Source: a phage. From it: a stretch of 64,000 nt of DNA. Both the position numbers and the translations under genes were made by a program. Positions 39,555-52,571 of the stretch are shown piece by piece. The stretch is from the sequence record PZ583739.1. One strand, 5' to 3'. How positions within the stretch are numbered: the stretch's first letter is position 1; each line of letters starts with the position of its first letter. Under the pieces are notes generated by a model. That model saw only the letters and a list, made by a program, of their open reading frames with translations, was not told the DNA's origin and did not search any database.

Positions 39555-39854
39555 TTAGAAAGAACCAGAACCTTTAATTGTGTTCTGGCGACCTTTATTT
39601 TCTAATTCAGAATGGTCAATTTCATATGCTTGTGCTACGCCAAAGGCCTTTTTAACTTTAGCTAAAGAACCTTTAGATGTAACAATATTAAAAGTATTGC
39701 CTTTAGTAAAATCAACCGAATCCACTTGCACGCCCTGTTTACCGAGGCTTGCTACAATAGCATCAACATATTGTTGGTCTAAATTACCTTGGACTCCGAT
39801 TTGAAATGCTTTAGGAGCTTTAGCTTCTGTGATAAATTCTTTATAAGTTAACAT
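39555..39854 (-). CDS. Internal-protein-like small protein with CTS-like N-terminus
   Basis: First ATG gives MLTYKEFITEAKAPK..., resembling the T4 internal-protein capsid targeting sequence MKTYQEFIAEA. Confidence 0.45.
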   Translation of the reverse strand: MLTYKEFITEAKAPKAFQIGVQGNLDQQYVDAIVASLGKQGVQVDSVDFTKGNTFNIVTSKGSLAKVKKAFGVAQAYEIDHSELENKGRQNTIKGSGSF

Positions 39855-40374: not shown

Positions 40375-40644
40375 TCATTTCTTAGAGTATTGACCCATAA
40401 GTTTAGCGATATCACCCAATTTCTGATTAAACAAATAATCCACTTCTTTACCAGATTTATCTACAATTTGCCACTGGCCACTTCCTTTGTTACCAAAGGT
40501 CCAATCACCAACTTTAAATGAAGTTCCATTAACTTTTTTAATAGAAGTAAACTCAAAGCCTTCTTTCTTAGCTAAAAATGCCATGCGGCTTTCATCTGAT
40601 TCATTTAATACAGATTCAGCCAAAAATTCTTGATACGTTTTCAT
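40375..40644 (-). CDS. Capsid internal protein (IPII/IPIII-like) with capsid targeting sequence
   Basis: 89 aa; N-terminus MKTYQEFLAES matches T4 CTS; located between denV and e as ipII/ipIII are in T4. Confidence 0.7.
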   Translation of the reverse strand: MKTYQEFLAESVLNESDESRMAFLAKKEGFEFTSIKKVNGTSFKVGDWTFGNKGSGQWQIVDKSGKEVDYLFNQKLGDIAKLMGQYSKK

Positions 40645-40647
40645 ATT

Positions 40648-41142
40648 TTACCTTTTGTATGCGTCAAAAGTTCCAGTACGGAAAGTTTCGATAACTCGTT
40701 TTGCCCTATTCGGAGTCTGGACTTTATACCATCTTGAGTCAGCTAGTTCCTTAGCAGCAGCTTCCCATGATTTAGCCTTCAGAAGTCGCATACCCTTAGG
40801 AAAACCAGCTACCCCAGCAACACCCATCTGGAATACCATATTAATGAGTGCACAGCGACGAACTTCATCCAGTACATCATAAACAGGTTTTAAGACAGGA
40901 TGTCTCAAGATTCCAGCTTTAGCTTTTTCGACCGAACGATTAAACAATGTTTCAGCTTCGTGTTGGGTTATGCGACCATTGCAGACGCGACCCATGAGCT
41001 TGTCGAGCTCAGCACGAGCAACATCTTTTGATGGGTTCTTAGTTATCAGTTGCCCGATACCAATGGTCCAATAGCCTTCAGTATCTTTATACAAATCCAA
41101 CTTACAACCTTCATCTATACGTAACATTTCGAATATATTCAT
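40648..41142 (-). CDS. e: Lysozyme (endolysin, T4 gene e)
   Basis: 164 aa; [32 protein letters not shown]...[12 protein letters not shown]...[16 protein letters not shown], near-identical to T4 lysozyme. Confidence 0.98.
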
Positions 41143-41168
41143 AATACCCCCTTATATAGGAGTATTTA

Positions 41169-41630
41169 TTATCCGAAAATTTGAGTCATTACCTTGTACA
41201 TCGATTTGCCCATCACGTACTGCCATTGGCTCGGTTTAATCAGAGCAAATGCATCAAACTCTGGGACCGAACTGCCATCCGGGAAGGTATGATAGGCAGA
41301 GCATTTACTGTGTCTGAATTGCTCATGCTCGACAGGAACCGTATACAAAAACAGGTGAAGGTTTTTGTTATCTGAATAACGGAACTCACCGAGGTCTTTT
41401 AAGAATGCCGGGTCGTATTGGGTAAACCCAGTTTCTTCTTCGGTTTCACGAATAGCCGCTTCAATCGGGGATTCACCAGCTTCCACATGACCCTTAGGGA
41501 TGTCCCATTTGTGTGCTGGCATACCTGGTTTACGAGAACCGGTCACACGACCCATGAATAACTCTTTATCTTCAGTCATGAAAATAATGCCAGCAGATAA
41601 TTCTTTCACCTTGTTTTTCTTACTCATCAT
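41169..41630 (-). CDS. nudE: Nudix hydrolase NudE
   Basis: Nudix box GHVEAGESPIEAAIRETEEETG; start trimmed to ATG at 41630. Confidence 0.9.
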   Translation of the reverse strand: MMSKKNKVKELSAGIIFMTEDKELFMGRVTGSRKPGMPAHKWDIPKGHVEAGESPIEAAIRETEEETGFTQYDPAFLKDLGEFRYSDNKNLHLFLYTVPVEHEQFRHSKCSAYHTFPDGSSVPEFDAFALIKPSQWQYVMGKSMYKVMTQIFG

Positions 41631-48794: not shown

Positions 48795-48830
48795 CTACTT
48801 TTTGAAGAAAATTTCAAATTTATTCAGGGT

Positions 48831-48854
48831 ATAAAAAAGCCCGCATTGCGGGCT
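48831..48854 (-). terminator. Rho-independent terminator
   Basis: Minus-strand hairpin AGCCCGCaaugGCGGGCU followed by U6. Confidence 0.6.
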
Positions 48855-48855
48855 G

Positions 48856-49410
48856 TTAGTTCTTATAAAAACGGAACGGATTTATATGAAAGGCGAGCAT
48901 AGCCTTAGGGATGGGTCGGGACAGAAGGCTCTTGAGCTTCCAGCCACAATAAACACGCAGATAAAAGGTGATTCCACCGACCTTAAGATAAGGAACAGAA
49001 GCAAAAACACCCCAGGCATTGTCCGTCCACATAAAGAGCCATCCATGATGAGCTTTATCCGGGGAACCAGATTCGACATCAGGATTACCTTTATAATGGA
49101 ATTCTGAATTGCAATCACGACCGAGCTTGTGGTAAGCAAAATTGTATGCTTTGTTTCGCCAGAGCCAGGCTACTCGTTGAAAGTAAACACCTAATGGCCA
49201 TTTTCGGATTTTTGACCAACGTTTGACATGACCTCGGTCACCATCAATCGGATTATCATAAGTCATCATCCAATCAAATCCGAACGGAAGTTTACCAGTC
49301 TTTTTATTATGGAACGGAACTACAAATGGAGCCAGGATAACGGCCAGAATCATGGAGATAAAATCCAGCGGAACTAACAGAATCCAACTCAAATATTTTA
49401 ACAGTTTCAT
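48856..49410 (-). CDS. Membrane protein, ~184 aa
   Basis: Trimmed to MKLLKYLSWILLVPLDFISMILAVILAPFVVPF (N-terminal TM); Trp/His-rich; TATAAATC (late-promoter-like, 7/8) lies 20 nt upstream. Confidence 0.45.
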   Translation of the reverse strand: MKLLKYLSWILLVPLDFISMILAVILAPFVVPFHNKKTGKLPFGFDWMMTYDNPIDGDRGHVKRWSKIRKWPLGVYFQRVAWLWRNKAYNFAYHKLGRDCNSEFHYKGNPDVESGSPDKAHHGWLFMWTDNAWGVFASVPYLKVGGITFYLRVYCGWKLKSLLSRPIPKAMLAFHINPFRFYKN

Positions 49411-49432: not shown

Positions 49433-49461
49433 TAAAAAAGCCCCAACCTTTCGGAAGGGGC
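49433..49461 (-). terminator. Rho-independent terminator
   Basis: Minus-strand hairpin AGCCCCuuccgaaagguuGGGGCU followed by U6. Confidence 0.55.
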
Positions 49462-49499
49462 TATACCTTGTCGGGGTTCCACCTGCAAGGCAAGTGTTC

Positions 49500-49883
49500 T
49501 TATCCGCGAGCGAATGCCATTGCAGCGCGTTCGTTGGCACGGTCGGTGATGTTCAAGAATTTATCACGAGCGATTTCGATTGGAGCGCCAACCCAGTCAG
49601 CGGCACCATTACCTGGAGACTGTTTAGGACGAACCATATAAGTTGAAACTTTGGAACCGGCTAGTTTAGCACCTGGTGCTGCTGCGTTTTTAACGTCTTT
49701 GGCTTTGATACCAAACCCAGTTACGATACCCCAAGAAACACCATTAACTGGTTTCTTGAACATAACACGGTCACCAATTGAAACACCGGCTTTTTCTGGA
49801 GCCACTAAAGAAAATTTGCCAGCTTCAGTCAGTACGGATTCGGTGATGGTATTGCGATTTAAAAATTCTGCATATGTAAGCAT
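49500..49883 (-). CDS. Small protein with CTS-like N-terminus (internal-protein candidate), 127 aa
   Basis: MLTYAEFLNRNTITESVLTEA...; late promoter TATAAATA 32 nt upstream. Confidence 0.5.
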   Translation of the reverse strand: MLTYAEFLNRNTITESVLTEAGKFSLVAPEKAGVSIGDRVMFKKPVNGVSWGIVTGFGIKAKDVKNAAAPGAKLAGSKVSTYMVRPKQSPGNGAADWVGAPIEIARDKFLNITDRANERAAMAFARG

Positions 49884-49914
49884 TTTGTTTTTCCATTATT
49901 AGGGTTGTTGTTAA

Positions 49915-49922
49915 TATTTATA
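49915..49922 (-). promoter_or_regulatory. T4 late promoter TATAAATA
   Basis: Exact TATAAATA on minus strand 32 nt upstream of ATG at 49883. Confidence 0.55.
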
Positions 49923-50120
49923 TTCCATAGTACCGGATGCACCATCCGCTCGGATTTCTCATACTACCGGGCGCACCGCCCGCTCTGGAAAAACTCCGTA
50001 AAAGGGTGCGCCGTTTCTGCTGTGATATAAGGGGACATCAACAAATCGTAAAGATTTATTAATGTCAGTCCTTAAACAGGGAACATCAGTCCGACGACTT
50101 ACCGGTAGCGACCCGGTTTC

Positions 50121-50360
50121 TCATTCAATTGTAATAGCTAATTTGACTTTAACAACCTTATAATTGGAATCAAGGTCATTGAATTCCATAAAATTTGTTG
50201 CTAATCTGCGAGTCGGGAAACTTAGATATTTATTATGAGCCGGAGGAGCGGTTAATGCAAACCATGGGACTTGTTTATCATTTGCATCAAACTCGTCAAA
50301 GCTATAAACCAGCTCGTTGTTGGTTATATCCATAACCGCGTAGGATTCGTTAATAACCAT
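50121..50360 (-). CDS. Hypothetical protein, 79 aa
   Basis: Trimmed to ATG at 50360 with RBS GAGGA; the ORF-track N-terminal extension runs into tRNA-Arg. Confidence 0.4.
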   Translation of the reverse strand: MVINESYAVMDITNNELVYSFDEFDANDKQVPWFALTAPPAHNKYLSFPTRRLATNFMEFNDLDSNYKVVKVKLAITIE

Positions 50361-52032: not shown

Positions 52033-52257
52033 TTATTCCACACCAGCAGCTTTCAAAAGTTTTTTAAGATTGGCAGTACCTTGAGCGGAAAATGTGACTT
52101 TGCCACCTTTTTCACCGATGCTACCGGTCAATTTAGCAAGTTTATCACTTGGAATTTTTTTAAAATCAGCCAGTGTACCATCAAAGGTTTTTGTAACAAC
52201 TGGCAGTTCATCTTCGTGTCTTTTAGCTTCGGTAATAAATTCTTGATAAGTTTTCAT
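52033..52257 (-). CDS. CTS-tagged capsid internal protein candidate, 74 aa
   Basis: N-terminus MKTYQEFITEA; own early promoter. Confidence 0.65.
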   Translation of the reverse strand: MKTYQEFITEAKRHEDELPVVTKTFDGTLADFKKIPSDKLAKLTGSIGEKGGKVTFSAQGTANLKKLLKAAGVE

Positions 52258-52316: not shown

Positions 52317-52571
52317 TTATTTTTTAGGGATACGGTAGTAACGCATCTCAACATCTTTCTGCTTGTACCACTTTTTGATAAGGTCTTCAGAACCTTTAAT
52401 AGTAACGATGTCATAGCGACCATCATGCGATACTTCAGCACTTAACTGCATGAAGTTGTCTAGTGAACGACGCAATTCCTCATTAGAAAAACTACCACGC
52501 GGGGAACCAACATAAGCAAACTCAACTTTTGCATCTGCGGCTTCGTTAATAAATTCTTGATAAGTTTTCAT
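52317..52571 (-). CDS. CTS-tagged capsid internal protein candidate, 84 aa
   Basis: N-terminus MKTYQEFINEA; own early promoter. Confidence 0.65.
   Translation of the reverse strand: MKTYQEFINEAADAKVEFAYVGSPRGSFSNEELRRSLDNFMQLSAEVSHDGRYDIVTIKGSEDLIKKWYKQKDVEMRYYRIPKK

Follow-up and report, generated by a model that had tools for sequence, protein, structure and literature searches.

The two short hairpins that lie between the rnaD homolog and the gene for a 127-aa protein in this phage DNA are real, conserved and structure-constrained. Based on folding predictions and on comparison with related phages we consider it possible, at a probability of roughly 40%, that the pair belongs to a cis-acting leader fold that would silence a late gene on read-through RNA. 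The window, i.e. the whole stretch of 64,000 nt that was analysed (sequence record PZ583739.1), has its relatives among the Gaprivervirus-type T-even phages, with DK-13, MN01 and VR20 as best matches. The features of the locus, listed 5′ to 3′ on the minus strand, are the following:

50005–50124, minus strand: homolog of rnaD (T4 species 2 RNA), 88% identical to T4 rnaD over 121 nt
49499–50004, minus strand: cassette of 506 nt (leader plus gene), delimited by junction alignment with CJ20, TH57, SP18 and T4
49884–50004, minus strand: cassette leader of 121 nt, with two hairpins and TATAAATA
49986–49994, minus strand: 5′ arm of the predicted closing helix, GUUUUUCCA, from MFE and consensus folds
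49960–49985, minus strand: repeat R1, with hairpin 1 (CGGGCG-GUG-CGCCCG) at 49982–49968
49926–49951, minus strand: repeat R2, with hairpin 2 (CGGAUG-GUG-CAUCCG) at 49948–49934
49915–49922, minus strand: late promoter TATAAATA, an exact T4-type sequence between both arms of the predicted closing helix, invariant in relatives
49887–49895, minus strand: 3′ arm of the predicted closing helix, UGGAAAAAC, which includes the Shine-Dalgarno (SD) GGA of the 127-aa gene
49500–49883, minus strand: 127-aa gene, putative internal head protein with an N-terminus like a capsid-targeting sequence (CTS) (MLTYAEFL...ITE/S)
49434–49498, minus strand: ACACUUGCCUUGCAGGUGGAACCCCGACAAGG and intrinsic terminator, which end the tRNA/rnaD unit in T4 and in the window

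In minus-strand text the two direct repeats read GAGCGGGCGGTGCGCCCGGTAGTATG and GAGCGGATGGTGCATCCGGTACTATG. A repeat search delimits them to 26 nt each (49926–49951 and 49960–49985), with a start-to-start distance of 34 nt and an identity of 81%; an earlier reading made from the sequence alone (hereafter the sequence-only reading) had the spacing right but put their length at ~28 nt. Its description of 6-bp stems with 3-nt loops on the minus-strand RNA holds, since both stems are perfect 6-bp helices with GUG loops (GTG in DNA). The shared module thus consists of GAG, a 6-bp stem whose sequence is free, the GUG loop and GGUAsUAUG, and is present in two copies 34 nt apart. Upstream, the 3′ end of rnaD (...GGCGCACC) is directly followed by CUUUUACGGAGUUUUUCCAGAGCGGGCGGUGCGCCCGGUAGUAUGAGAAAUCCGAGCGGAUGGUGCAUCCGGUACUAUGGAAUAUAAAUAUUAACAACAACCCUAAUAAUGGAAAAACAAAAUG. 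On the other side R2 ends 3 nt upstream of TATAAATA without overlapping it, and the sequences downstream of the hairpins are GUAGUAUGAG and GUACUAUGGA, with no U-tract on either strand.

R1 and R2 differ at five positions, four of which make up two stem pairs, and each of these pairs is exchanged in a compensatory manner (G-C/C-G versus A-T/T-A). An arithmetic estimate puts the chance of such compensatory differences at ~4e-4. The pattern CGGNNGGTGCNNCCG occurs twice where 0.12 occurrences are expected, and the full repeat pattern was found in none of 100 shuffles. Complementarity is not inherent in the CGGNNGGTGCNNCCG motif, because among 244 unrelated matches in public collections the NN/NN positions were complementary in only 15 (1/16).

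As the sequence-only reading had stated, the hairpins are not intrinsic terminators: a terminator scan of the minus strand of the interval returned no site, and the U-tract is missing. A search with Rfam 15 covariance models (E up to 10) gave no match in 49884–50004, no sigma-70 promoter was predicted at the repeats and no MotA-box arrangement was seen there by eye. Two coding readings were rejected: the antisense 41-aa ORFs, which relatives interrupt by indels of 1 nt, and a 14-codon uORF, which loses its AUG in TH44. In the records of YenP8 and M719 antisense ‘hypothetical proteins’ are annotated over the intergenic leader, and the one of M719 extends into rnaD.

Alignment of 12 cassette sequences showed how the stems vary. 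Hairpin 1 reads CGGGCG/CGCCCG in four of them and CGGACG/CGUCCG in the other eight, a G-C to A-U exchange with perfect co-occurrence of both changes (G49979/C49971 to A/T, 8/12 sequences). In hairpin 2 the variant A49945G turns the pair into G·U in TH44, TH40 and L142. Every stem substitution keeps pairing, one of them as a double change; on the structure scored 229 of 229 cells pair (100%) compared to 32–55% in slid controls, and the observed score was reached by one of 500 shuffles. The covariation is real but thin, as it consists of one covarying pair and possibly of one event. The sequence-only reading had taken the compensatory differences between the copies as an argument for selection on structure and had proposed a check for covariation across related phages; the relatives now add the double change in hairpin 1, the G·U pair in hairpin 2 and complete pairing of the 229 cells. 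Judged from these alignments, selection for pairing is supported, and the G·U variants would favour RNA of the minus strand as the paired molecule.

Constraint is not limited to the stems. The 121-nt leader contains 8 substitution sites, whereas 43 of the 127 third codon positions vary in the adjacent gene (Fisher p = 9e-8), together with one first and no second position; pi is 0.019 in the leader and 0.167 at the fourfold-degenerate sites of the gene, which is a ~ninefold difference (12 cassette sequences). The low number of sites and the low pi compared to third positions argue that the whole leader, and not the stems alone, is under strong purifying selection. The flanks and loop of the repeats, a GGAG and TATAAATA are invariant among relatives.

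The motif was found nowhere else. Both a regular expression with a tolerance of 2 mismatches and a covariance model derived from six repeat variants (E up to 10) returned only these two copies in a search space of ~190 kb, comprising the window, DK-13 1–111 kb, cassette-free relatives and the loci of remote homologs of the 127-aa gene. With blastn the 105-nt segment matched only in 16 cassette phages, and pattern scans of IMG/VR and metagenomes yielded chance matches only (the 15/244 with complementary NN/NN given above) in addition to VR20 itself. The element is locus-specific and is neither a dispersed repeat nor a regulon operator; a motif at a single locus is what one would expect of a gene-specific cis element.

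The sequence-only reading regarded 49884–50120 as an ORF-free interval. About half of it is the rnaD homolog (50124–50005), so it is not empty: matches to 50005–50124 are annotated as rnaD or species 2 RNA in RB10, RB55, T2L and X03016. The rnaD homology ends at 50005, directly upstream of the leader. In T4, RB10 and T2L as well as in three Gapriverviruses (CJ20, TH57 and SP18), rnaC (species 1) begins ~6 nt after rnaD, and the element ACACUUGCCUUGCAGGUGGAACCCCGACAAGG and a terminator come next. The distance from the 3′ end of rnaD to ACACUUGCCUUGCAGGUGGAACCCCGACAAGG is 534 nt in the window compared to 175–176 nt in the rnaC-bearing phages, and there is no rnaC in the window or in DK-13 1–111 kb, which together represent about the whole genome. 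The aligned junctions show the cassette to be a precise replacement of rnaC, with a distribution of 16 Gaprivervirus records and two metagenomic contigs. Since rnaC has been swapped out and rnaD kept, rnaC is dispensable in the cassette phages, which constitute a natural rnaC knockout through gene replacement with rnaD retained. ACACUUGCCUUGCAGGUGGAACCCCGACAAGG and its terminator (49434–49498, minus strand) are kept from T4 to the window, after rnaC or cassette alike, and the annotation of X03016 describes the homologous T4 stem-loop after species 1 RNA as a potential terminator.

Further observations concern rnaD itself. Its 5′ bases overlap the stop codon of a 79-aa ORF, and it is unannotated in related Gaprivervirus records. 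The centre of rnaD (50030–50085, minus strand) exists in at least three very different versions among relatives (L125, L127, L142, L143) while both ends are conserved; this diversity could be used for deriving the secondary structure of rnaD by covariation.

The gene downstream of the leader was described as CTS-like by the sequence-only reading. We confirmed the 127-aa ORF at 49500–49883, the N-terminus of which is MLTYAEFLNRNTITE/S. The CTS reading is reasonable because four other ORFs in the window start with M(K/L)TY.EF (39555–39854, 40375–40644, 52033–52257 and 52317–52571, all minus strand); the regions upstream of these four are unrelated to the cassette leader. Among phage records the gene and the hairpin segment have exactly the same distribution, 16 records, and the gene was also found in two metagenomic contigs. 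Fifteen of these records encode a product with 100% amino-acid identity and the sixteenth one with 99.2%, and this identity despite a fourfold-site pi of 0.167 implies that purifying selection on the orphan protein is extreme. It could be assigned to no Pfam or PHROG family. It forms one near-identical cluster among 5.8 billion proteins, and only two remote homologs, both with CTS-like N-termini, were detected among 1.8 billion representative proteins. At the loci of these homologs there are no such hairpins and no sequestration of the SD; in one of them (L140) a terminator separates the tRNAs from the gene, and a leader of this kind is missing. An AlphaFold model of the 127-aa protein reached a pLDDT of 58, and a Foldseek search against the PDB gave non-significant, generic SH3/KOW-like small beta-barrels. 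On a metagenomic contig (L141:1-240) a diverged copy of the CTS gene breaks off after codon 53 and a NUDIX gene comes next, apparently because of a recombination junction within the CTS gene.

The exact late promoter that the sequence-only reading had placed at 49915–49922 beside the hairpins was confirmed as a sequence match. The TATAAATA octamer is not enriched in the window, with 5 occurrences found and 5.7 expected. Late transcripts presumably start near 49909, ~6 nt downstream of TATAAATA, as we assume from general knowledge of T4. Elsewhere in the window, at 48797–48864, there is a sub-threshold Rfam match to the enterobacterial sRNA STnc370 (37.7 bits compared to a gathering score of 54, E = 0.006); the site is intergenic and lies downstream of a DUF7338 gene.

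In order to characterize the leader at the RNA level we folded 140–155-nt RNAs reaching from the 3′ end of rnaD to past the start codon. Both MFE and centroid structures contain a predicted 9-bp helix between GUUUUUCCA and UGGAAAAAC, which closes a multi-branch loop holding both hairpins and TATAAATA. The RNAalifold consensus of 12 sequences displays the same closing helix, and the invariant GGAG (49997–49994) shares the first base of the 5′ arm. In the read-through RNA the mean probability of being unpaired is 0.08 for the SD arm; 400 dinucleotide shuffles of the upstream leader gave 0.59 ± 0.10 and in no case (0/400) a value as low. For a bimolecular duplex between the SD region and the leader upstream of it we calculated −11.3 kcal/mol, which is reached by 0.2% of shuffles (p ~0.002). 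For the UGGA the unpaired probability is 0.47 in a late transcript starting 6 nt after TATAAATA and 0.09 in the read-through RNA. As a positive control the phage's own gene e homolog was treated by the same method and gave an SD unpaired at 0.26 in read-through and at 0.60 in late RNA. This gene e (lysozyme) homolog, which starts at 41142, carries an SD-sequestering hairpin at ~41143–41190 (minus strand) beside a late-promoter-like AUAAAUA.

These predictions suggest the following course of events. Early and middle transcripts of the tRNA/rnaD unit would read into the cassette; from the tRNAs/rnaD to the 127-aa gene no terminator is predicted on the minus strand, and the terminator of the unit sits downstream of the gene. 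In such read-through RNA GUUUUUCCA (49994–49986) is predicted to pair with UGGAAAAAC (49895–49887) and to cover the SD, so that the 127-aa protein would not be made early. Late transcripts would begin inside the fold, without the 5′ arm and both hairpins, and could hence be translated; for this last step T4 e, soc, 49, I-TevI and segB and Aeh1 mobE serve as analogues. The combination of RBS-sequestering structures with internal late promoters is known from late genes that are also present on polycistronic RNAs of the early or middle period, for example T4 e, soc, 49, I-TevI, I-TevII, I-TevIII and segB, the last of which is situated in the T4 tRNA region, and Aeh1 mobE (PMC3014915, PMC2988022). 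The hairpins themselves may act as stable inner modules that compact and organise the 90-nt loop, a role that we infer and that is the weakest step of the model.

Breaking the hairpins in silico changed the unpaired probability of the UGGA from 0.09 (intact) to 0.00 (hairpin 1), 0.22 (hairpin 2) and 0.01 (both). Since the SD stays covered, we rejected the idea that the hairpins are thermodynamically required for the closing helix. The fold model thus accounts for the leader but not for the conservation of the hairpins. The closing helix is predicted in 10 of 14 natural variants and changed, and thereby weakened, in the other four, by A5 to A4 (MN01, TH55), U5 to U6 (TH54) or a C to U exchange giving G·U (YenP8). 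In these four the MFE moves to an alternative fold with a local helix of GGAGUUUUUC and GAGAAAUCC around hairpin 1 and with the SD 0.26–0.55 unpaired; by MFE values the two folds are ~2 kcal/mol apart. When unprocessed rnaD is attached, a different structure is preferred, with an SD unpaired at 0.46: the 3′ end of rnaD is predicted to form a long composite stem with repeat 2 that has hairpin 1 at its tip. Among the relatives the closing helix displays no double compensatory change, and the folding z-score of the whole leader is −1.6.

What the hairpins contribute can be explained in other ways. We consider it rather unlikely that they serve as a processing or stability element of the stable-RNA unit. 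According to this explanation RNase P cannot free the 3′ end of rnaD once rnaC is gone, and a cut in the single-stranded GGAG/U-rich segment (by RegB at GG/AG or by RNase E at AG/UUUUU) would separate rnaD from the mRNA, with the hairpins as recognition context and/or exonuclease barriers. It agrees with a leader that begins exactly at the rnaD 3′ end, with a GGAG that is invariant in all variants and followed by a conserved U-run, and with the cleavage of GGAG by RegB within intergenic regions of early RNAs (PMC3014915). Furthermore, the loop and 3′ arm of hairpin 1, GGUGCGCC (49969–49977, minus strand), are exactly complementary to the 8 nt with which rnaD ends, GGCGCACC (50005–50012, minus strand), and the composite stem described above is predicted for the unprocessed precursor. 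However, 5.8% of shuffled leaders formed an equal duplex (p ~0.06), and pairing of the hairpins with the rnaD 3′ end was rejected as not significant. The composite stem would also dissolve hairpin 2, the perfect pairing of which needs explaining, and the conserved SD complementarity is left unaccounted for. The sequence-only reading had pointed to a structured RNA like the small stable RNAs of T4. That RNA is the adjacent rnaD, and the hairpins form the 5′ part of the cassette leader. A free-standing small RNA of ~80–100 nt, left by rnaD processing, replacing rnaC and acting in trans, would fit the slot that rnaC occupies in relatives, the strong conservation and the stable hairpins. However, the hairpin segment resembles neither rnaC nor rnaD nor any Rfam family, lacks a 3′ end signal of its own (terminator or tRNA-like end) and always accompanies the gene (16/16 records). 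Because rnaD is the stable RNA, such similarity is missing and the hairpins belong to the cassette leader, a free-standing RNA is less likely than a cis-acting leader, and we regard it as very unlikely.

Recognition by a protein can be envisaged at the level of DNA or RNA. Two palindromic sites 34 bp apart could be an operator whose binder, a dimer and possibly the product of the cassette itself, adjusts how the cassette is transcribed late. Both units are inverted repeats right upstream of TATAAATA whose flanks (GAG...GGTAsTATG) are conserved, flanks and loop are invariant, and the autorepression of I-TevI at its late promoter is a precedent (PMC2988022). We nevertheless give this explanation little credence: half-sites are not expected to accept G-C to A-T swaps that preserve complementarity alone, the G·T variant suits RNA better than DNA, the motif is unique in the genome, and the 127-aa protein has a low-confidence model and belongs to no recognisable DNA-binding family. 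To our knowledge, T4 late promoters have no upstream activator sites. A protein or RNase recognition site, which the sequence-only reading had mentioned, is possible. The more specific proposal that the modules go beyond a passive scaffold, either as a recognition platform for a protein or nuclease, possibly for the packaged 127-aa protein, or as a new stable RNA in place of rnaC, seems unlikely to us. The pair could also be a functionless duplicated quasi-palindrome that is kept perfect by templated (strand-switch) mutation in replication, its changes being mutational and not selected. Templated mutation was reportedly first described in T4, by Ripley and co-workers. Template switching changes both arms together and the covariation comprises one pair and possibly one event; the double change in hairpin 1 may have arisen by such templating. 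As an explanation of the whole element it is improbable: a leader ~ninefold less diverse than neighbouring fourfold sites is hard to obtain without selection, and the G·U variant would be an uncorrected intermediate that persists in three sequences.

If the silencing leader fold is true, a classic T4 trick, a late promoter within the fold that silences read-through RNA, would be extended to a capsid-targeted gene. This gene would have been inserted into an operon of stable RNAs, and the architecture of its fold, long-range and multi-branch, would be unusual. The locus is also a natural case in which a protein-coding cassette has precisely taken the place of the enigmatic rnaC. In practical terms the finding has limited value, as the element is confined to ~16 closely related phages.

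Several known elements resemble parts of the locus. A short G+C-rich stem-loop is shared with intrinsic terminators, which differ by the U-tract that is missing here on either strand. PeSL cassettes of T4-type phages and REP-like palindromes likewise have a repeated stem-loop where a variable gene cassette of a hyperplastic region begins or ends; in contrast to these, the motif studied here resides at one locus and without an associated sigma-70-type promoter. For an operator of the I-TevI type one would expect a protein-bound site that overlaps the late promoter; the proximal repeat stops 3 bp upstream of TATAAATA. With rnaC the hairpin segment shares the slot directly 3′ of rnaD, as in T4, RB10, T2L, CJ20, TH57 and SP18. 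It differs from rnaC and rnaD in that it has no rnaC similarity and no tRNA-like 3′ domain and is tied to a protein gene. The gene seg43(25) of Aeromonas phage 25 has, shortly before its RBS, a predicted hairpin of very high stability, which does not sequester the RBS and has no known role (PMC2988022). The likeness lies in a stable predicted hairpin upstream of an RBS, but seg43(25) has a single hairpin of other sequence and context while here two repeated units lie upstream of a promoter. The nearest comparison is with the RBS-sequestering leaders of T4, and the cassette leader may, tentatively, be a variant of this familiar fold. T4 leaders are compact local hairpins, as in the phage's own gene e, whereas the arms here are 99 nt apart and the loop encloses a promoter and two conserved, covarying hairpins; the predicted helix has just 9 bp and lies ~2 kcal/mol from an alternative fold. 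In common with the T4 leaders, a late gene would be carried on early or middle read-through RNA, and a helix predicted for the window and for 10 of 14 variants would cover the SD. TATAAATA lies between the arms, so late transcripts would be without the 5′ arm, and the gene is an inserted, dispensable cassette, as is segB, which likewise lies in the tRNA region.
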